IMG/VR virus record: IMGVR_UViG_3300047551_001193
Span: 1 to 32,161 of that record
Source: a virus
Lineage: Duplodnaviria; Caudoviricetes
Length of the DNA: 32,161 nucleotides
Strand: one strand, 5' to 3'
The notes under the pieces were generated by a model that worked only from the letters and a program-made list of their open reading frames with translations, was not told the origin of the DNA and searched no databases. This document shows positions 4,926 through 28,270 of the stretch, piece after piece (the first letter of the stretch is position 1; each line of letters begins with the position of its first letter). Position numbers and translations under genes: made by a program.

Positions 4926-5159
4926 TTACACCTCCAGCACTCGAAAGAATAATCCAACGTGGACAACTTCGCCATCGGCATCTTCCTCATACGCTTCTAG
5001 CCATGTTGTATCATCTTCTTCGACCCATCGACCATCGCGCAAATCTCGAAGCCATACACCGTTCGATAGTATAATGTGTGTTGAACCTTCGAATCGGCGG
5101 ATCGTTTCGCCATCTTCCTCTTTGACTTCTAATTCTTTCGATCCGGTGAAAATTTTCAT
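4926..5159 (-). CDS. Acidic hypothetical early protein
   Basis: SD AAAGGGAG within the 29-bp repeat. Confidence 0.7.
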   Translation of the reverse strand: MKIFTGSKELEVKEEDGETIRRFEGSTHIILSNGVWLRDLRDGRWVEEDDTTWLEAYEEDADGEVVHVGLFFRVLEV

Positions 5160-5166
5160 AACGATT

Positions 5167-5195
5167 CTCCCTTTGCGCTATGCGCGTTTCGTTTG
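5167..5195 (-). repeat. 29-bp leader repeat, copy 2
   Basis: CAAACGAAACGCGCATAGCGCAAAGGGAG, identical to 5509-5537. Confidence 0.95.
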
Positions 5196-5254
5196 AAGCG
5201 TTTGGCGCTTCATCGGGCACTCGATTTTCGAATGCCCTGTGAAGGGTCAAAGAC

Positions 5255-5500
5255 TTAATCTCTAAATTCAACGCATTTTACTTTGCAAATGCCATCTTTT
5301 TGAGTGTAACCAATCACAAAATTCGGTGCATATTGTGAAGCGGCGTATGCTCTAACCTCATTTTTGACGCTAAAATCAGTTATAATTTCGGTTATTCCTC
5401 TATAATTGTAATCTTCGAACGCTATAATTATTTCGTTTTTTAATTCGCTTTCCTCGCATTGAATCGCTTGTAAGTTTTTAATAATTTGTTCGTGTGTCAT
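5255..5500 (-). CDS. Hypothetical protein, first early gene
   Basis: Follows promoter P1 and the repeat-borne SD. Confidence 0.75.
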   Translation of the reverse strand: MTHEQIIKNLQAIQCEESELKNEIIIAFEDYNYRGITEIITDFSVKNEVRAYAASQYAPNFVIGYTQKDGICKVKCVEFRD

Positions 5501-5508
5501 GGTATCGG

Positions 5509-5537
5509 CTCCCTTTGCGCTATGCGCGTTTCGTTTG
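5509..5537 (-). repeat. 29-bp leader repeat, copy 1
   Basis: Identical to 5167-5195. Confidence 0.95.
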
Positions 5538-5555
5538 TGTCTTGCTTACATTCTT

Positions 5556-5584
5556 ATTATATTACAACTACTTGTAATTGTAAA
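5556..5584 (-). promoter_or_regulatory. Early sigma-A promoter P1 with palindromic spacer
   Basis: TTTACA-attacaagtagttgtaa (17 nt)-TATAAT; ATTACAA-GTAG-TTGTAAT palindrome. Confidence 0.85.
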
Positions 5585-5595
5585 GTGTATTATAT

Positions 5596-5619
5596 AAAAA
5601 AACCGCCATCTAGACGGTT
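5596..5619 (-). terminator. Terminator ending the late/lysis operon
   Basis: AACCGTC-TAGAT-GGCGGTT followed by T-tract, right after the holin stop. Confidence 0.8.
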
Positions 5620-12680: not shown

Positions 12681-15338
12681 TTATCTGATTGTGTTATTTT
12701 TTGCTTTAATAACATCTGTCATGTGCGGCGCGATTGTCGAAGCCATGTTCTTTCCATCTACATATAGATTAAAATTAGCGCTTTGAAGTTGATTCATTAA
12801 AGTGGTTTGCGCGAATGGATCAATTGCACCGCCAACGCCAGCAAATGAAGGTTTAGCACTAGTTAAATTTGCCGCCGCGCTTGTTACTTTTCCAACCTTT
12901 GACATAATAGAAGAAATAGCGGCTTCAATATTTTTGCTTTGCGATGCAATTCCATCTAATAAGGATTGCCCCCAACTTTTGCCTGCGTCCTTCCAGCTAG
13001 GATTATATGAGTTTAGCAATTCAACAACTTTTTTATTATTGCTATCTAAAAATAATTGTCGCGCTTCGGCTTGCAATTTATCCTCTTTGTTGATTTGTTC
13101 ATAATGCTTGGATAAAGCCTTTTCGATATTTGCAAAATAGGCTTCTTCATTTAATCGCATTTGTTCGCGTGTTTTTATTTTGTTATCAAAATTCGTTTGA
13201 AGCATAGCCAAATCATTATTTAATTTTGTTTGTTCGGCTTCTGTATCTTTGCGCAATTGTTCTTCTTTTTCTTTGCGCTGGCGCTCGGCATCCAAACGAA
13301 TCCATTCCGCGCGTTGTCGTAAGTCGTCAATTAATACGCGGCGTTTTTCAAGTAAAAGTTCGCGCTCGCGCTTTGCATCCATTTCCTGTAATTCGTCTAA
13401 AATCTTTACGCGTTCTTCTTCGCTTTTTGCGGTAGATAATGAACGAATTTTTTCTGCTTTTGCTTTTTGGAATTCTTTATCGCGCAATGCTTTTTCTTCG
13501 CTGTCTGTTTGCTGATTAATAGCGTTAATTTGAGTATTAATATCTTGCAATTGTGCCTTTGTTGATGAATCTAGAAGCATGATTTGATTATCATAAGTCC
13601 GGCGAATTTGTTCAATGTTTTGATCCGCCATATCCCGAAAAGATTGTTGCACCAAATCATTTGCTTTTCTAGCGTCCGAAACGAATGTATCAAAGTTAGA
13701 ACGCGCCCGATCTTGTTGCTTACTTAATGAATCGCGCTGGATTTGTTCTTCTTGCGCATAACGATTTTTTAATGCTGTAATAATATTTCCACCCAATTCA
13801 TCGCTAGCTTTTACAGATGCTTTAATCAATTTATCTTGTGCATCTGCTAATTCTTTTGATTTTTTAGCCGCATCGCCTTTTGATATCGCCAAAGCATTAG
13901 CCGCATTTCGTTGCTTCTCCATTGCTTCAGTCGCTTTTTGTGTCATGCCTGTCATAATCAATGTGCGGTCTGTCATGTAATCGGTCATTCCAGCATTCTT
14001 GTTTTGTCTTTCGACTGTTTGTTTAATTGTTTCGTTTAATAATTCTGTTTGATATCTCCATTCGGCAGTCGAAAGTGCTGATTGTTTAGCAATCAAACTA
14101 ACTTTTTCAGCCATCATGGAATCCTCAACTTCTTTTTGAAGTTTCTTAAATGAATCTCCTATGCTACCAAATTGACCGACTGTAGCAATCATAAAATCAT
14201 AAAAAGCAATTTTTAATCTATCTATAATTATCTTTACAGCACTATACATAATGCCAAATTTTGCGCTTATGGATTCGGTGGCATAAATAAAAGCGATTCT
14301 GAATTTCTCGTAATTATCCATGAATGATTTAATTGCATAACCCCAAGCAACTACCGCCGCAACGATTAAACCAATGACAGGTAGCGCCGCCGATATACTC
14401 GCGGCAGATGCAGTCATATATGCGGATAATGCCTTTAATGCTGTCGATACATTAATTATCGTTGTCATTAAACTAGACAAAATAAGCAAAAGAGGACCAA
14501 TAGCCGCAACGATTGCGCCAATTACAACAATTGCCTGTTTTATTTCCGGCGACAGCTTTTGAAACTCTTTTAATATCTCATTTACTTTTTGAATAAATTT
14601 GGTGAACGTTGGGAGAATAACTTCGCCCAATTGTTTTCCTAATTCCTTTAAATTCTCCGTAAACATTCGCATCTGATTTGCCGCGCCATCTTGCGTTCTT
14701 GCAAAATCGCCCTGCGCATTTTTCGTCCGATCCATAACGAAAGCATATCGAAGCGCAACCAATTCCGCTTCCGTCATTTTTTCTACTTGCTTCGTTATTC
14801 CTTGCGTCAGCGCAAATGCTTGAAGCTGTGTTTGCGTCATCACAACGCCTAACATTTTTAGGCTTTCCGTTTCGCCTGTGAAAACTCCGTTTAAAGCATA
14901 CATTGCTTGTTCTATCGGAATATTTTTGAACGATGCCAAATCAGCACCCAATTGTGTCAATGACATCGCCATTTTTGCCGCTTCATCGCGTGATATTCCC
15001 ATTGAGGTAGCCATATCACCAAATAACGCCGCCGCATCTAATGCCGATCCACTTGCAAGTCCCATTGATTCAATCGAAGTTTTTGACCATTCAATAACCG
15101 ATGAAGCAGATGAACCGAAAGCAACGTTGACTTTGTTTAGTGATTCTTGAAAATCACTTGCCAATTTTACAGAAGCCGCGCCAACAGCGACTAATGGTAG
15201 CGTAACGCTTGCAGTCAACGTTTCGCCAACCGCTTGGAATTGATCGCGCGCCGCTTCAAGTTTTGCAGACATCTTCGACATTGCATCTGAAAATTCTCTG
15301 ATATCTGCGCCGATTTTTACAACTAATTCATTCAACAA
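12681..15338 (-). CDS. Tape measure protein
   Basis: ELVVKIGAD start, DLASFKN, GETESLK, hydrophobic middle, long coiled coil. Confidence 0.95.
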   Translation of the reverse strand: MLNELVVKIGADIREFSDAMSKMSAKLEAARDQFQAVGETLTASVTLPLVAVGAASVKLASDFQESLNKVNVAFGSSASSVIEWSKTSIESMGLASGSALDAAALFGDMATSMGISRDEAAKMAMSLTQLGADLASFKNIPIEQAMYALNGVFTGETESLKMLGVVMTQTQLQAFALTQGITKQVEKMTEAELVALRYAFVMDRTKNAQGDFARTQDGAANQMRMFTENLKELGKQLGEVILPTFTKFIQKVNEILKEFQKLSPEIKQAIVVIGAIVAAIGPLLLILSSLMTTIINVSTALKALSAYMTASAASISAALPVIGLIVAAVVAWGYAIKSFMDNYEKFRIAFIYATESISAKFGIMYSAVKIIIDRLKIAFYDFMIATVGQFGSIGDSFKKLQKEVEDSMMAEKVSLIAKQSALSTAEWRYQTELLNETIKQTVERQNKNAGMTDYMTDRTLIMTGMTQKATEAMEKQRNAANALAISKGDAAKKSKELADAQDKLIKASVKASDELGGNIITALKNRYAQEEQIQRDSLSKQQDRARSNFDTFVSDARKANDLVQQSFRDMADQNIEQIRRTYDNQIMLLDSSTKAQLQDINTQINAINQQTDSEEKALRDKEFQKAKAEKIRSLSTAKSEEERVKILDELQEMDAKRERELLLEKRRVLIDDLRQRAEWIRLDAERQRKEKEEQLRKDTEAEQTKLNNDLAMLQTNFDNKIKTREQMRLNEEAYFANIEKALSKHYEQINKEDKLQAEARQLFLDSNNKKVVELLNSYNPSWKDAGKSWGQSLLDGIASQSKNIEAAISSIMSKVGKVTSAAANLTSAKPSFAGVGGAIDPFAQTTLMNQLQSANFNLYVDGKNMASTIAPHMTDVIKAKNNTIR

Positions 15339-15954
15339 TGCACTTCACCCCCATTAGCAAGCGTGACCTGTTTTAATACGTCTATCATATCAACCATTGA
15401 CATTACTTTCTTTTTCGCTTTTTCTTTTGGCATAAAGTCGGAAGGTGTAAATGCTTTTCCTTTGCCACGATTTACATTTGCAATCACAGAACAAATAAGC
15501 GCCGAATTGAATAACTCGGCGCGTTGGTTTTCCTTGTGCCGATGGCACAAACTATTAAATTCAGCTAGTGTTAAACGCCAAAAATGATCTTCAGACAATC
15601 GCAAATCATATATACCGATTGACCATAATTCTAACCAATTTGGCGCTTCTACTTTTTTTCCTCTGTTGCATCTTCGTTTTTCCCATAACTAACCGTCATT
15701 AGTTTGGAAATGGTTTCTGATACTACATTAAAATTATCCATTGTAATTAATTCGCCAACCTGATCTAATGTTAAATCTTCTCCGGCTGATTTCAAACTAG
15801 CATATAACAACCCGCGAATGTTTCTCGCTTCTTGCAACCCTTCGCCAATTGTAAAAAGTGACTTGCCTGTCACTTCTTCAAAAATGCTCATAGCGTTTAG
15901 GTCTAATCTCAAATTTCGTTCCCTGTCCAACGCAATCGAGATATTTTTTCTCAT
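15332..15954 (-). CDS. Tail assembly chaperones gpG (15649..15954) and gpGT via -1 frameshift
   Basis: A AAA AAG at 15652-15658 just before the TAG; the -1 frame reads KKVEAPNWLELWSIGIYDLRLSEDHFWRLT into ORF 15332..15604. Confidence 0.9.
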
Positions 15955-18921: not shown

Positions 18922-19665
18922 CTACTTTCTCAAATGTGATTGCTTCGCTTTGTTATTGCTAGGTGCTACTGGCTTTTGCCTATATAAGTGTTCCGGTGGG
19001 CACGTTGTATCTAGCCATATTTTATAACCATGAACCGCCGCCCGAATACAAAAAGCCCGATCCTCCCATAAGCTATGGGATACATTATATATCGGAGAAT
19101 AATTTACACCTGCACGAATGACTTCAGACTTAATCAATATACACGCCCCTGACATTCCCACTTGATGCAATCCAGCATTTCGAAATTGCTCATACTGCCG
19201 ATCATACGCGAACGAATAAAAATCATACATCCACGCGTTCGGCTGTTCATCTGCTTCCGGTGTCCATTGTGTCCAAAAGACTTCTGCAACGATTTCCTGT
19301 TTATGACTCAATAATTTTTGTAACGTCTGCGGCTGTAAAATTAAATCCGAATCGACTAAGAAAAAATAATCGTACTTTTTTTCTAAGGTATAACGTAATA
19401 AAGCGTTTTTCATCTTGGTAACATCTTTTAAGTTTTCGCCAGTCCAGTGGTGCGTTTCATTATCTCGAACATATTCATTATCACTCTGAAACTCGACATA
19501 TTCAGATGGTTTTAAGAATCGTTTTAATCTCGGCGAATTATGCAATATAAAGAAAAAATCAACCTGACACCCTTTGGTATCCAGTTGATTCAACGCCTTG
19601 AGATATTTATAAAATGTGAGGTGATCTTGTCTGACAGGTGCGCCTATGAGAATACGCTTCTTCAT
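18922..19665 (-). CDS. Glycosyltransferase, GT-A fold (GT2-like)
   Basis: YDYFFLVDSD (DxD), GACILI, WEDRAFCIRA. Confidence 0.85.
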   Translation of the reverse strand: MKKRILIGAPVRQDHLTFYKYLKALNQLDTKGCQVDFFFILHNSPRLKRFLKPSEYVEFQSDNEYVRDNETHHWTGENLKDVTKMKNALLRYTLEKKYDYFFLVDSDLILQPQTLQKLLSHKQEIVAEVFWTQWTPEADEQPNAWMYDFYSFAYDRQYEQFRNAGLHQVGMSGACILIKSEVIRAGVNYSPIYNVSHSLWEDRAFCIRAAVHGYKIWLDTTCPPEHLYRQKPVAPSNNKAKQSHLRK

Positions 19666-20348
19666 AGTCCGTCACCCTTGTCCTCTACATATAGCGTTCC
19701 TAATTCATGTTTGTGCTTATTGTAATACTCCCTAAAATCTTCTTCAAAAATCGGCACTTGTGCCAAATGCCCAAACTGTAAAGTGGTATCGACATACATT
19801 TCGATTCCGGCTTGCTTTAATTTATAGCAAAAGGATAAATCCTCGCCCCATCCATCGCGTGGAAAAAAGTATGGCTTTGAAACCTTTTCGAATACTTCGC
19901 GCCGGATCAAGCAACAAGCCATTCCAGCGCCATCAATCCTAAGCAATCCTTCGCCATATTCTACCGGACTTTCAAGATAGCATTTCCCATCCGGCTGTTC
20001 TTCGATTTTGCTATAAAAGCATGGCTGATATGGTTGAACGCGCTTGAACGCTTTAGCAGTTACAAACGGAAGTTTGTGGCGTTCTAAATAATAAATTGAA
20101 AGCGGATGAAATACCATATCCGAATCAATAAACATTAACGCCTCGCACTCTGATTTTAGAAACTGTTCTACAATTGATTCACGCGCATCGTGCACTAGCG
20201 AATTTTGTGTCATACAAAAACTATATTCATGGTGTCCGCGCTGATTCGCCATTTTGACGAACGATTCAAAAACGCGAAATTCAATCGGGCGCGACATTGG
20301 AATACCAATCATAATTTTCATTGGCATTTGCTTTGCTTCATCTGTCAT
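19662..20348 (-). CDS. Glycosyltransferase, GT-A fold (GT2-like)
   Basis: LMFIDSDM (DxD), GMACCLIRREVF, GEDLSFC, VDT...GH. Confidence 0.85.
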   Translation of the reverse strand: MTDEAKQMPMKIMIGIPMSRPIEFRVFESFVKMANQRGHHEYSFCMTQNSLVHDARESIVEQFLKSECEALMFIDSDMVFHPLSIYYLERHKLPFVTAKAFKRVQPYQPCFYSKIEEQPDGKCYLESPVEYGEGLLRIDGAGMACCLIRREVFEKVSKPYFFPRDGWGEDLSFCYKLKQAGIEMYVDTTLQFGHLAQVPIFEEDFREYYNKHKHELGTLYVEDKGDGL

Positions 20349-20352
20349 TATT

Positions 20353-20454
20353 CACACGCTCCTGTAATTGTGTGTACCTGTAAAAAATAGAGGGAAAGGC
20401 GTACAGGCTCGCCCTTGTCGTCCGTCGACTATCCCTCTATCGCGCGAATCGCGC
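20353..20454 (-). ncRNA. Structured cis-regulatory RNA (three-way junction with U-tract and possible pseudoknot)
   Basis: ATAGAGGGA/TCCCTCTAT stem enclosing GTCG/CGAC and AGGGCG/CGCCTT hairpins; loop CCTGTA is complementary to two downstream TACAGG. Confidence 0.6.
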
Positions 20455-20461
20455 CTAATTA

Positions 20462-20854
20462 TTATCCTTGGTAGCGGTCGTTGCCTTGTACGTTGATCGC
20501 GCTAATGCTAGAAGCTGTGTCTACTTTGGTTACATATACTCCAAGGTAGCGCTTGCCTTCTGTGATGTCAGTGTTCAGCACATCCACAGTCGTAACATTT
20601 GTAGAAGCTGTTGCAACGGATACCGTTGTTGTGGACAACAAGGTAGCAACTGCGCCCGCCCATGTTGCGGCAGTGGACTCGTACACCTTCACAACAAGCG
20701 TGCTCGCTGTTGTAGCTGTACCATGAGATACAACCGCCGCGAATCGCCCGAATTGACTCATATCAACAAGAGTAGAGGAAGAGATTGCCGCGCTAACTTG
20801 CGGATAAATCGCCTCGCTGATTGTTACTTGCTCGCTAATTTTTGCGTTTGGCAT
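20462..20854 (-). CDS. Putative capsid decoration protein, Ser/Thr-rich
   Basis: Directly after the MCP; strong SD; about 36 of 130 residues are S/T by manual count. Confidence 0.7.
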   Translation of the reverse strand: MPNAKISEQVTISEAIYPQVSAAISSSTLVDMSQFGRFAAVVSHGTATTASTLVVKVYESTAATWAGAVATLLSTTTVSVATASTNVTTVDVLNTDITEGKRYLGVYVTKVDTASSISAINVQGNDRYQG

Positions 20855-22874: not shown

Positions 22875-25394
22875 TTACACCTCCGTTTCTCTTTCTCTCA
22901 CATAACCGACTGCACAACGACAATTAATTCTTTCGCGTGCAGAAAGTTCCCAATCCGCCGGATACTCACCAAGTGATTGACCAACGCGAAATTTTGCTGT
23001 TAATGCTATTGCTGGATGGCTAGACATTTCCGCGTGCGTATCTCGTGTGTCGCCATCTTGTGTTGGAATCCATATTTTCAGTAACCTTGCGCCAAATTCC
23101 GATTCCGCTTGCTGTGCCCCTGATAGGCTTCCCTTGTTCGCGGCGGTCATCGTTTCTGTTCTTGCAATCGTTTCCGACCGATTCGGGATGATCTGATCTA
23201 AATACAATTGCCCGATTGCATAGGCAATCGTATCCGGTGTTTCTTCGTCACCAATTGCCCATCCTGCATTAATGCCCATCATAATAATATTTTTAATTTC
23301 GGCACGCGTGGTGTCGTCAATCAGCACAACCGCATTTCCAACGTTAACTGTAATCCAATATAGCAAATCATCTGTATAAGCTTCGAACGCTTTGTTATGC
23401 ATCTTCTCGCGGCGTAAATCGTTGTACTGCTGTTTGCCGAAATGGTCAATCACCGCACGATTCATAGCAATTAAAATGTTACGCAAATCCTTGCTTGTTG
23501 CAGTTATGACTTGATCCGTCAGGCGCTCGGCTTGAAATGGCGATGCACCTTTTAATTTATTCATCAGGTCATCTTTCTGTTCGCCAAAATAGCGCTTGAT
23601 TTCTCGTTGTGTTTTTTGGATATATCGCTCGCGCTCTGCATCAATACGCTTCCAGTATGATTTCATTTCATCCGGCGACATATCGACCGATTTCTTTTGC
23701 TTGTCCTTTGCTTCTTGAATCACAGCTTTCATGTGATCCAATCCGCGACTTCCGACCATGTGCCATTTGACCTGCGCAATAACGCCAGCCAACCTATGAT
23801 CCCGATAATGACGCGCCGACCACGCTTCGCGCATCCGAATTATCTCAATATCGTTCGGTGTCAATTCGTCAGCACTTTTTCCTTCGTCACGAACTCGGCG
23901 AATGACTCGGTAGGTGTCGTTTCCTTGAATGTTGCCGCCTTTTGCCCAAATATCAGGAAAATTATTTCGCAAATCTTCGGCATAATCCAAAGGGAACAAT
24001 TCAAACTGACTATTAGCAAGCGAAATGGTTTTATCTTCTCCGGCTACCGGAAAGTTTGTAGGTACTTTTTTTTTTGCAATTTCAATCTGAATTTCGGTTG
24101 CTTCTTCTTCCTCGTCACCATCTTCGAGTTCGATTTCTTCCGGCTCTTCCATTTCCTCCGGTTCCATTTCTTCCGGCTGTTGAATTGGCGCTGGCTGTTC
24201 GACTTCTTGAATCGGCGCTGTAGCTGTTCCGATTGCTAATTCATTAAAATAAAGATTACCCGAAACTGGATCGTCCTCATAATCCAATGCGTAGCGCCCT
24301 TCGTTACGCTTAATCAATCCAGCTTTCCATAGTTCGCGGATTCGAGTAGCTTTCTTGTCCTCGTTTTCTTTCAGCGCTCCTACACCAGTCAAATCATATT
24401 TCAAAACGAGAGAATCCGAATAACGCGGCAACAAGTCAGACTGCAACTTATCCAAGATATGATCCAAATAGCGACTAATAACGGTATTTTCCCAAAAGGC
24501 TTTTTGCGCTTCTCCGTAATTTGAATAGGTCTGTCCTTCGGGATCGCCGACAATTTGCGACGGAACACCAAACGCGGAACAAATCTCGGTACGGTTTACT
24601 TTGCGCTGATTTAAGAAGTCCATATCCATAGCGCTCAATCCAATTTGCTGATACGTCGCCTTGTCAGCATTTAGGATCAACGGAATACGCGCGTTTGATC
24701 CGCCAGCATAACGCTTGCGCCATTCTTCGCGTAACGTTTCTTGTAACTCCGGCGATGGATTCTGAATCTGAAAGACACCTGGCGGAACACCTGCATTTTG
24801 TAGCGTTGACTTATTCCAATCTACCGCTTCGTTTTCCGTATCAATTGTCCGGCTTAATGCTCGAATCGGACTTTGCCCTTGATAAACGTCTAACGGATCA
24901 TTGAATTTAGACCATAAAATTTCTTCCGGCGTGTACAAAATTGGCGTATCTAGCCGATATTCATAACCGCCAATAAATTCCGTTCTATGCGGAATTGGGT
25001 ACATATAGTGCGGATATAACGGATACATTGCCATTGGTGCGTTCGGATTGCTATATTCGGCATAGAATTTTCCTTCAATCGCCAAATAAGTCGCCCAATA
25101 ATCAATAAAGTCTTTTCCACTCATGTGCGGATTTGCTTTACTGTTCAACATGGTTAGAATGGGATGGTCTGTAATCTCGATTAGCCGACCTCCACGCCCT
25201 TTTCGATAAAGCAACCAAGGTACGCTTGACACTGCGCCCGAAATCGCGCTTACACAAGCATACACCCAAACAACGCGGTTATATCCCTCGGTGATAAATT
25301 GTTTATCTTTTTGCGTGTTCCAAACTGGCTTGTCGAAATTACCTTGCATCACATACCGCCATTTGTCTTTCTTAAGAAAGTCAAAAATGCCCAC
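22875..25394 (-). CDS. Portal protein fused to an unknown domain and a MuF (minor head) domain
   Basis: HK97 portal motifs (VYACVSAI, GQSPI, EICSAFGVP, NEGR); C-terminal RSETIARTE...TRDTH...INCRC. Confidence 0.9.
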   Translation of the reverse strand: MGIFDFLKKDKWRYVMQGNFDKPVWNTQKDKQFITEGYNRVVWVYACVSAISGAVSSVPWLLYRKGRGGRLIEITDHPILTMLNSKANPHMSGKDFIDYWATYLAIEGKFYAEYSNPNAPMAMYPLYPHYMYPIPHRTEFIGGYEYRLDTPILYTPEEILWSKFNDPLDVYQGQSPIRALSRTIDTENEAVDWNKSTLQNAGVPPGVFQIQNPSPELQETLREEWRKRYAGGSNARIPLILNADKATYQQIGLSAMDMDFLNQRKVNRTEICSAFGVPSQIVGDPEGQTYSNYGEAQKAFWENTVISRYLDHILDKLQSDLLPRYSDSLVLKYDLTGVGALKENEDKKATRIRELWKAGLIKRNEGRYALDYEDDPVSGNLYFNELAIGTATAPIQEVEQPAPIQQPEEMEPEEMEEPEEIELEDGDEEEEATEIQIEIAKKKVPTNFPVAGEDKTISLANSQFELFPLDYAEDLRNNFPDIWAKGGNIQGNDTYRVIRRVRDEGKSADELTPNDIEIIRMREAWSARHYRDHRLAGVIAQVKWHMVGSRGLDHMKAVIQEAKDKQKKSVDMSPDEMKSYWKRIDAERERYIQKTQREIKRYFGEQKDDLMNKLKGASPFQAERLTDQVITATSKDLRNILIAMNRAVIDHFGKQQYNDLRREKMHNKAFEAYTDDLLYWITVNVGNAVVLIDDTTRAEIKNIIMMGINAGWAIGDEETPDTIAYAIGQLYLDQIIPNRSETIARTETMTAANKGSLSGAQQAESEFGARLLKIWIPTQDGDTRDTHAEMSSHPAIALTAKFRVGQSLGEYPADWELSARERINCRCAVGYVRERETEV

Positions 25395-27042: not shown

Positions 27043-28216
27043 CTATTCAACGCGCTCGGCTTCTTTTCCAGTCATGTTTTCCCAACGCTTAACTATTACA
27101 TCGCAGTATTTTTCATCTAACTCCATCATAAAGCAATTTCTATTTAATTCTTCACAAGCAATTAATGTTGAACCACTACCACCAAATAAATCTAATACTA
27201 TATCATTTTTTTTACTTGAATTATTTATTGCTCGCTTAGGAAGTTCAACAGGTTTTTGAGTTGGATGAAATTCATTTATCAATTCTTTTTTTAGTTCCCA
27301 TACGGTTTTTTCATTTGTAGCACCAAACCATTGTGGAGAACAATTGTTTTTGAAAGCATAAATACAAGGTTCGTAATTTGGAATATATTGCGACATGAAT
27401 GAACCTAATCCCGAATTTACTTTATACCAACACAATACTGCTCTAACAGTTAAACTCAATTTTGAAAATGAATTAAAAGTTTCAACTGCTTTTCCATTTG
27501 CATACCATATATAAAAGGCGGAATGATCGTTTGAATATTTTATTGCGTTATTTAATGAATCTGCAAATAAATCTGTTAAATTTTCTCCTTGTAAATGATC
27601 ATTCTTTATTCCAACTCTTTTTTTTCTCGTTATGACCTCCAGTATAAGTAACGCCATAAGGTGGGTCTGTAAAAATCATATCGGCTTTATTTTTATTCAT
27701 TAATTTTTTTACATCTTCCTCACTTGTCGAATCTCCGCACATTAACCTATGATTCCCCAACTTATAAATCCAGCCGCGTTGCGTGATAGGCTCTTCAATC
27801 TGTTCTAATTCCTTTTCCGCGTCAAAGTCATCATCATTTCCTTTTTCGACTTCATCCGGCAATTCCAAATCTTCAAATCCTGTAAATCCTTCTATGTCAT
27901 CCAGTTCTAAATGTAATAATTCCATATCCCATTCTGCCAACTCGCCTACTCGATTATCAGCTATTCGATATGCTTTGACTTGTGCAGGTGTTAAATCATC
28001 GGCAACGATTACTGGCACCTCTTTTAACCCTAGCTTTTTTGCCGCTTTTAATCGCGTATGACCTGCGACCACTTCGCCCTGTCCATCAATCACAATCGGC
28101 TGTTTGAATCCGTAATTTTTGATACTACTTGCTACTGCATCTACCGCATGATCATTTTTCCTCGCGTTGTTAACATAGGGAATTAACTCGTCAGTCTTCC
28201 GCATTACGATTTCCAT
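27043..28216 (-). pseudogene. ParB-like N-terminus + N4/N6 DNA methyltransferase, split by a frameshift at an A8 tract
   Basis: PYVNNAR, GHTRLKAA, YRIADNR, HRLMCGDS, DPPY in frame 1; HPTQKP, DLFGGSGST in frame 2; T8 at 27618-27625. Confidence 0.85.
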
Positions 28217-28246
28217 TTGCCAACCCTCTTTCGCCTGTAATAGCAC

Positions 28247-28270
28247 AAAAACCAACCGCATCCGGCTGGC
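28247..28270 (-). terminator. Intrinsic terminator at the early/late boundary
   Basis: GCCAGCCG-GATG-CGGTTGGT-TTTT; extended -10-like TGaTAAAAT at 28285-28293 just upstream. Confidence 0.7.

Follow-up and report, generated by a model that had tools for sequence, protein, structure and literature searches.

The gap ahead of a glycosyltransferase-like gene in the head operon of a tailed phage is occupied by an RNA leader (positions 20353 to 20454, minus strand) that is a marginally scoring but orthologue-backed member of the Rfam int-alpA family (RF02996). One loop of its three-way junction can pair with either of two downstream sites, the second of which overlaps the Shine-Dalgarno (SD) sequence of the following gene, and another loop is self-complementary, a property that the sequence-only reading of this DNA had overlooked. 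From the way both features are retained among relatives, we tentatively propose a translational switch in which the leader responds to a second copy of itself.

The leader and its setting in the head operon

The DNA analysed (hereafter the window) is a virus record of 32,161 bases from a tailed phage, in which the terminase, portal, protease, major capsid, head-tail and tail genes all lie on the minus strand; the style of the genes gives the impression of a Firmicutes-like host. Directly after the major capsid gene stands a 130-aa gene (20462..20854, minus strand) matching phrog_5707 (function unknown; E 9e-8), whose stop codon lies 21 nt ahead of the outer stem of the leader (P1) and whose product is possibly a head decoration protein, judging from its position. 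When an alignment of this protein was run against genome contigs, 157 pattern matches were obtained, none of which was confirmed. The leader fills the 113-nt gap between the 130-aa gene and the first glycosyltransferase-like gene (228 aa; 19662..20348, minus strand), which is the predicted regulated gene. The latter matches phrog_1574 (E 7e-14) and the glycosyltransferase family phrog_34859 (E 1.5e-5). Its glycosyltransferase profile matches are weak and a Pfam scan of the protein gave no match; a D-S-D motif is invariant in all 10 aligned sequences. The start of the second glycosyltransferase, which is GT2/Anp1-like (18922..19665, minus strand; PF03452, E 4e-13; PF00535, E 2.3e-5), overlaps the stop of the first, and the head-tail and tail genes continue downstream in the same direction without a long gap.

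Two glycosyltransferase genes (18922-20348, minus strand) are in this way placed inside the head operon, right behind the gene for a Ser/Thr-rich protein (36 of 130 residues; 20462-20854, minus strand). The Ser/Thr-rich protein is a candidate glycosylation acceptor, and by analogy the two enzymes may glycosylate the virion, a modification reported in mycobacteriophages Che8 and Rita in the available text of PMC11256854. In five related loci (L024-L028), the first glycosyltransferase has in common a 47-aa Asn/Ile/Lys-rich insertion that is missing from other relatives and is possibly an inserted foreign stretch or an assembly artefact.

Re-reading of the sequence confirmed that every piece of the RNA listed in the sequence-only reading is present on the minus strand at the place given there. 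In the direction of transcription, a 5-bp hairpin with a 3-nt loop (P0, 20442..20454) is followed by the three-way junction core (20387..20440), which corresponds to the int-alpA RNA (RF02996 match at 20439-20376). The core comprises the outer stem P1 (20440-20432 with 20395-20387),; the P2 hairpin (20420..20429), whose register of 3 bp closed by a GACG tetraloop (L2, a predicted kissing homodimer loop) comes from covariation; the conserved junction strand J2/3 (20415..20419); and the P3 hairpin (20397..20414), which bears the 8-nt anti-site loop L3 (20409-20402). A six-U tract follows P1 (20382..20387). The hexameric complement of L3 then occurs twice, at 20382-20377 and 20366-20361. The first copy lies in site 1 (20376..20382), the proximal complement, which offers six Watson-Crick pairs and one G-U pair and is predicted to form an in-cis pseudoknot or to serve as a decoy. 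The second copy is site 2 (20366-20361), which, together with the SD sequence (20363-20359), is presented in the loop of a 5-bp hairpin identified by folding (P4, 20353..20374).

The 58-nt junction folds at -24.1 kcal/mol (z -3.87) and the 116-nt leader with a z of -3.47; in neither case was any of 200 shuffles as good. The first inner hairpin had been read as a 4-bp stem with a 5-nt loop, and the energy-minimum fold gives the same register, which is wrong: changes in the relatives keep 3 bp around GACG and leave the next five bases as junction. The hexamer complementary to L3 is found 20 times in the window on both strands (6.5 expected), 17 of the copies being on the minus strand. We rejected this enrichment as evidence because an order-4 Markov model expects 14 minus-strand copies, so that the repeat is weak evidence in the window alone; the loop-site pairing is established by sequence covariation in relatives.

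The RNA had been put forward as a candidate new cis-regulatory RNA, and an Rfam search had been named beforehand as the check on novelty. That claim falls, because a sensitive Rfam scan of 20250-20600 matched RF02996 with 36.1 bits (cut-off 35.8; E 4.8e-6) over positions 1-71 of the 71-position model. A filtered whole-window Rfam scan at gathering level gave no match and a covariance search with RF02996 over the window's own record gave no candidate; since the sensitive scan passes the cut-off, the whole-window null is a false negative. The RF02996 cut-off was also passed by 6 of 16 orthologous loci (at 39-45 bits), by 15 of 20 hand-picked pattern matches and by 30 of 50 virus records reached via the loci, versus none of 14 control genomes. 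The junction letters fit int-alpA as well, with UA at J1/2, GA(A/C)AA at J2/3 and a short J3/1; among the 187 family members described below, J2/3 reads GAAAA in 137, GACAA in 34, GAUAA in 11 and GAAA in 5, a distribution partly fixed by the search patterns.

The window copy shares with RF02996 the three-way junction, the junction letters and a 3' end at site 1, and it differs from the family as named in that it heads glycosyltransferases in a head operon. The name alone, with its int and alpA genes, suggests a phage or prophage context; the window is indeed a virus record, and an ORF follows downstream in 182 of the 187 members. The displayed RF02996 model contains no pseudoknot, as covariance models drop pseudoknots, and its consensus ends at site 1, so that the authors of the motif may have seen the site-1 pairing. 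Site 2, P4 and the link to the SD lie outside the displayed model and the L2 dyad is unmarked there; extension of the motif by a second site in an SD hairpin and by a dyad loop is strongly supported by the sequence comparisons. The motif was presumably described by Weinberg et al. 2017. The name int-alpA is absent from the main text of that paper (PMC5737381), and the published mentions found consisted of a presence table and a gene-order label, in partly available sources, with none under RF02996. Topic searches of the literature, with most subscription journals outside their scope, gave nothing on the motif judging by the listings. Rfam types int-alpA as 'Gene; sRNA'. The fold is thus real, conserved and already catalogued, and the function proposed below is predicted from sequence.

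Relatives and the complementarity of loops L3 and L2

Searches with the two flanking proteins yielded 36 viral loci, and the element was parsed in 35 of them, the sole exception being a locus that starts inside the gene. When the first glycosyltransferase served as profile query, 80 loci were obtained, 15 close and 65 distant. The element is present in 13 of the close loci (one of the other two is truncated and one, at 54% identity, lacks it) and absent from all 65 distant ones. The 26 distinct orthologous leaders form three lineages, in which L3 and both downstream sites change together when compared by eye: in the window's lineage CCUGU goes with two copies of ACAGG, and in the other two CCCUU goes with two copies of AAGGG and UCCCU with two of AGGGA. 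An alignment of 21 leaders with MAFFT misregistered P2 between the lineages; no pairs were counted on it, and an anchored parser was used instead. Among the 26 leaders, the U-tract and P0 are confined to the window's lineage (group A), and P0 lies outside the family core. The L2 of this lineage is of the weak two-pair GACG type and the strands of P0 are themselves self-complementary; they might add a second dimer contact. Four loci (L020, L023, L031 and L034) have an extra hairpin of ~35 nt between site 1 and P4, with the distance from the junction to site 1 unchanged. In L021 (4273-4340; L022 is identical), an insertion before the leader contains a second copy of the P2 arm, which an inverted repeat farther downstream sequesters by pairing.

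A broader family set of 598 sequences was assembled from the matches listed from four pattern scans (about 120 each) and the protein-based loci. The patterns fix only junction and stem letters, and they bound the length of P2, leaving the letters of L2 free. The anchored parser identified 395 elements in 392 of the 598 sequences, and 187 remained after those more than 80% alike were dropped; the parser omits members with a very short P2 and retains at least one misparse (L494). Metagenome elements less than 80% alike to the first set served as a second set. By tool estimates, the motif occurs in ~2900 viral stretches (one pattern) and ~270 genome stretches (a stricter pattern), and the genomes bearing it include Pseudomonadota, Bacillota, Planctomycetota, Acidobacteriota, Chloroflexota and Nitrospirae.

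The claim that the junction loop alternates between a proximal site and a site in an SD-overlapping hairpin loop is strongly supported by covariation in these relatives, the check that had been proposed for it. Two non-overlapping Watson-Crick matches to L3 (>=5 and >=4 bp) are present downstream in 150 of 182 members versus 23.2±4.5 when loops are swapped (maximum 40 in 100 permutations), and in 43 of 50 members of the second set versus 8.6±2.5. With >=5 bp for both matches, the count is 107 of 182 versus 6.7 swapped. Same-sense L3 words gave 8 of 182, and two upstream matches are found in 11 of 182, under the swapped-loop level of 23. The swapped-loop control includes the shared anti-SD bias, and the L3 controls leave relatedness partly uncorrected; when 60 disjoint pairs of close elements with unlike L3 were compared, a member's own sites beat the crossed ones in 49, tied in 9 and lost in 2. 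A pair-type table of the close pairs was rejected as proof of covariation, being Watson-Crick by construction; it shows four pair types per register. There remain 26 of 182 members without two Watson-Crick sites of >=4 bp.

Of the 156 members with two such sites, 142 have a site 2 that overlaps the best SD-like hexamer, and the median distance from the end of site 2 to the start codon is 7 nt. A P4-type hairpin (>=4 bp, <=-1 kcal/mol) encloses site 2 in 109 of the 156, versus 30.5±5.2 with shuffled flanks, and an enclosing hairpin is found around site 1 in only 22. As many as 61 different site-2 tetramers occur with complementarity kept. The spacing between the junction and the start of site 1 is 13-19 nt in 142 of 156; for site 2 it is 25-34 nt in 127 and up to 71 nt in the rest. 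The pairing with site 1 is longer than that with site 2 in 86 members, equal in 48 and shorter in 22 (median duplex -8.2 versus -7.6 kcal/mol), and because it is usually the longer one, site 1 fits a default state.

Loop L2 is self-complementary far more often than expected. Of the 49 loop types, 35 contain a palindrome of >=4 nt versus 12.5±2.8 in within-loop shuffles (at most 21 in any of 1000). Counted by element, the figure is 112 of 187, whereas the control loop L3 has one in 15 of 168. About nine different self-complementary tetramers occur: AGCU (38), GGCC (30), UGCA (13), GCGC (11), CGCG (10) and GUAC (3), and more rarely CCGG (2), UCGA (2), CAUG (2, the centre of one longer word class) and CUAG (1). 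The other loops are mostly GACG (32), GGCA (14) and UCGCU (13). A dyad centre of GC or CG is found in 175 of 187 elements and no dyad in 3, and many dyads are off-centre in 5-nt loops. In the second set, 25 of 44 loop types are palindromic and 11 more are two-pair types. When the length of P2 was left free, 68 of 75 elements had an arm of 10-14 nt, and the four with a 23-24-nt P2 retain the dyad (three 6-nt palindromes and one GC centre, by eye). Near-identical elements swap the whole P2 arm for another self-complementary one. No partner for L2 was detected in cis, matches within the own leader being present in 37 of 110 versus 40.7±4.4 expected. Self-complementarity that is kept through changes of letters, together with the lack of a cis partner, is the signature of a kissing homodimer. 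For the GACG loop of the window and 31 other members, the precedent is the dimerisation loop of MoMuSV and MoMuLV (PDB 1F5U), in which a GACG tetraloop is able to form a two-pair C-G kissing homodimer according to the available text of PMC7357161; those loops serve retroviral genome packaging, and we draw a one-loop analogy and claim no homology.

Up to three leaders with differing L3 words occur per phage (L238, L364 and L365, which are one provirus record, and L121, L194 and L139), and those in L121 and L139 adjoin tRNA genes. In L514, two near-duplicates 411 nt apart (1194 and 1605) have almost the same L3 and a switched L2 dyad (CGCG versus UGCA), as if avoiding cross-talk. Among 11 records with two or three copies, the L2 dyad and the L3 word were never both shared (by eye); this is weak evidence of insulation, because few sharing pairs are expected by chance and several of the records are related.

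A proposed translational switch and its alternatives

The presence of one loop with two mutually exclusive targets, one of which is the SD in a weak hairpin, makes it very probable that the leader affects translation. Our preferred proposal, which we hold as a tentative one, is that the int-alpA leader is a translational switch in which kissing between L2 loops lets a second copy close the SD and thereby caps output. On a lone transcript, L3 would pair with site 1 in cis, the weak P4 would breathe and the gene would be translated; site 1 suits such a pseudoknot with an open SD, given its tight distance and greater pairing length. As transcripts accumulate, two copies would kiss via their self-complementary L2 loops, and the L3 of the partner would then kiss the P4 loop and shut the SD. 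The dyad would give a reason for the second site, since docking at L2 would deliver the L3 of another molecule. That molecule may be a complete mRNA or else a shorter RNA, terminated at the U-tract or processed back to P1, in which L3 would be free because site 1 is lacking. The outcome would be protein-free negative feedback that caps a gene in a strongly transcribed operon. Functional dimerisation of the leader is, on the loop sequences, distinctly probable in our judgement, and if a dimer does form, we lean towards its being the off state.

Several observations tell against this proposal. A dimer of full-length mRNAs gains little from the swap unless the kissing geometry stabilises it, since site 1 usually forms the stronger duplex, and against a short-form partner stands the occurrence of a U-tract in only 53-66 of 187 elements. 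The length of P2 is not correlated with the distances from the junction to the sites (rho 0.12, p 0.13; rho 0.05, p 0.52), the length of P3 likewise gives no clear signal, and 4 of the 75 elements have a P2 of 23-24 nt; no fixed dimer geometry was therefore found. Members with a two-pair L2 loop do not make up for it by longer pairing at the sites (p 0.80 and 0.11). Distance does not require a partner, since L3 plausibly reaches site 2 in cis.

The genes behind the leaders support the cap model, being mostly ones that a phage must ration. Downstream proteins were scanned for 150 of 182 members, many of them truncated by locus ends, the gene of the window and four of its lineage being left out. 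Among the 25 top families, nucleases of the HNH, GIY-YIG or endonuclease-VII type account for at least 37 of the 150, and replication-initiation or DUF1376 proteins for at least 14; among the matches listed there are also Rha (3), integrase (2), antirepressor (1) and glycosyltransferase (3) proteins. The idea that nucleotide sugars act on the leader finds no support in this set, because homing endonucleases and replication initiators predominate and there is no common metabolic theme; such a ligand is unlikely. The association with glycosyltransferases is local, and the mixture of downstream genes suggests no shared ligand.

The same gene content can be turned to an opposite reading, in which a lone transcript locks its SD by a cis kiss between L3 and P4 and dimerisation diverts L3 to site 1, so that translation would occur only above a transcript threshold, filtering leaky expression and delaying the gene to the late, high-copy phase. 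The two sites, P4 and the L2 dyad fit this reading equally well, and it has parallels in Gifsy-1 IsrK, where a short isoform of the own transcript activates in trans (available text of PMC4825925), and in the T4 homing endonucleases, which are kept off until late by hairpins over the RBS (available text of PMC2988022), endonucleases being frequent behind int-alpA as well. However, site 1 is usually longer or stronger and is transcribed first, which favours it as the monomer state, and its distance is not scaled to the length of P2, as that of a trans contact might be; we regard the opposite sign as unlikely. We also judge it rather unlikely that the switch is purely in cis, with the SD open when L3 forms the site-1 pseudoknot and closed when it kisses P4. 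The choice would then depend on the relative stability of the two states, on temperature, on a host protein or a small ligand acting at the junction, or on ribosomes terminating on the upstream gene. The two sites, P4 and the conserved junction letters would all be accounted for in this way, and among the 130 members whose flank is long enough, 74 have an upstream stop codon at a distance of 0-39 nt from P1 (21 nt in the window), which places many elements inside operons. It would, however, leave the covarying L2 dyad unexplained, near-identical elements trade whole P2 arms for other self-complementary ones, and the downstream genes have no metabolite in common. Control by a partner copy remains our preferred reading.

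Termination and a role at the DNA level fit poorly. A stable stem followed by six U is present in the window, where the tract is a possible partial intrinsic terminator releasing a form without site 1, and a U-rich tract follows P1 in 66 of 187 elements versus 22 of 187 just upstream. Yet the tract tracks low GC and is missing from about two-thirds of the family, including lineages B and C before the same gene, so that a general role in termination, which had also been suggested, is unsupported. Were the leader mainly an intrinsic terminator or attenuator lowering read-through from capsid to glycosyltransferase, with the loop matches secondary, the two-site covariation, P4 and L2 would moreover go unexplained, and the tail genes continue without a long gap; we consider this very improbable, and the leader is probably not simply a terminator. 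Slightly less probable still is a DNA-level or single-stranded-DNA element, such as an operator or a cassette recombination site, that moves with add-on genes and whose repeats are binding sites. Near-identical copies do precede unrelated genes, the L2 words are palindromic, and single-stranded-DNA motifs are hard to distinguish from RNA motifs (available text of PMC5737381). Against this, site 2 tracks the SD and varies widely with its complementarity kept, G-U pairs make up 124 of the 1525 P2/P3 pairs when read on the sense strand, and the dyads are often off-centre.

Two further candidates were rejected. Hexamers resembling a -10 element are enriched 0-9 nt upstream of P1 (88 versus 10-24 in bins beyond 20 nt), and this sign of a promoter right before P1 was not used because it is confounded with TAA stop codons. 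The guanidine-II riboswitch consists of two tandem hairpins with ACGR loops; the leader has one such hairpin only, with the loop GACG, other dyads take its place in relatives, and there is no Rfam match in 20250-20600.

Comparison with other RNAs and further features of the window

The P1 C4 RNA is a branched RNA that pairs with repeated complementary sites of its own transcript. The P4 CI RNA is likewise a branched phage leader RNA that does so, pairing with seqA upstream and seqC downstream and causing termination, as described in the available text of PMC4825925, whereas both sites of the present leader are downstream and are targeted by one loop. The likeness to C4 and CI that had been pointed out therefore holds loosely, for a branched leader with repeated sites in its own transcript; it does not extend to an upstream target (11 of 182 versus 23) or to an Rfam match, no C4-type family being found in the scan of 20250-20600 at E <= 10. 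Gifsy-1 IsrK resembles the proposed switch in that translation is set in trans, by a short leader isoform acting on the long isoform of the same transcript; IsrK uses long strand invasion and an upstream ORF, it activates, and no self-complementary kissing loop is described in the available text (PMC4825925). No Rfam IsrK match was found in 20250-20600. For I-TevI, segB and mobE of T4-type phages, RNA structure over the RBS rations endonucleases on polycistronic transcripts (available text of PMC2988022); those hairpins are single and are relieved by a late promoter, whereas the present leader is built around a three-way junction, offers L3 a choice of two sites and carries a dyad loop. In combining a junction with a predicted pseudoknot between a loop and the 3' side, the leader may also resemble the exoribonuclease-resistant RNAs of flaviviruses.

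With such a mechanism, an orphan Rfam motif of phages and many bacterial phyla gains a specific, testable role. If dimerisation drives the switch, an mRNA would sense its own concentration, giving gene control without a protein or ligand; in the literature searched, with most subscription journals outside its scope, no bacterial leader that senses the concentration of its own mRNA by dimerisation was found. In its broadest form, the proposal is that int-alpA leaders are widespread, portable, RNA-only concentration sensors, which homodimerise through the dyad and use a two-key code (the L2 dyad and the L3/site word) to switch their own RBS without a protein, a metabolite or a separate antisense gene, multiple copies being insulated by at least one differing key; we regard this as evenly poised between being right and wrong. 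A switch driven by dimerisation would account for the presence of selfish endonucleases, replication initiators and, here, glycosyltransferases in strong phage operons without overproduction, and would offer synthetic circuits a 100-nt part for dosage compensation whose orthogonal variants already exist in nature. The in-cis version alone would still assign translational control to an RNA catalogued as an sRNA.

Other features of the window, all on the minus strand, are also of note. A ParB-fused DNA methyltransferase (27043-28261) is split over two overlapping frames that both match phrog_498 (profile positions 32-241 and 239-430), which points to a frameshift, programmed or broken. In one 839-aa frame (22875-25394), the portal protein continues through an acidic linker into a head morphogenesis domain resembling Mu gpF. 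Two neighbouring intergenic regions (5159-5255 and 5500-5618) have in common a 27-nt repeat that ends at the SD of two small genes and is preceded by a terminator and a promoter-like stretch. Between the genes for the tail tube and the tape measure lie two short genes (15332-15954) that resemble a tail assembly chaperone pair, and an A-rich run at the end of the first might act as a frameshift site.
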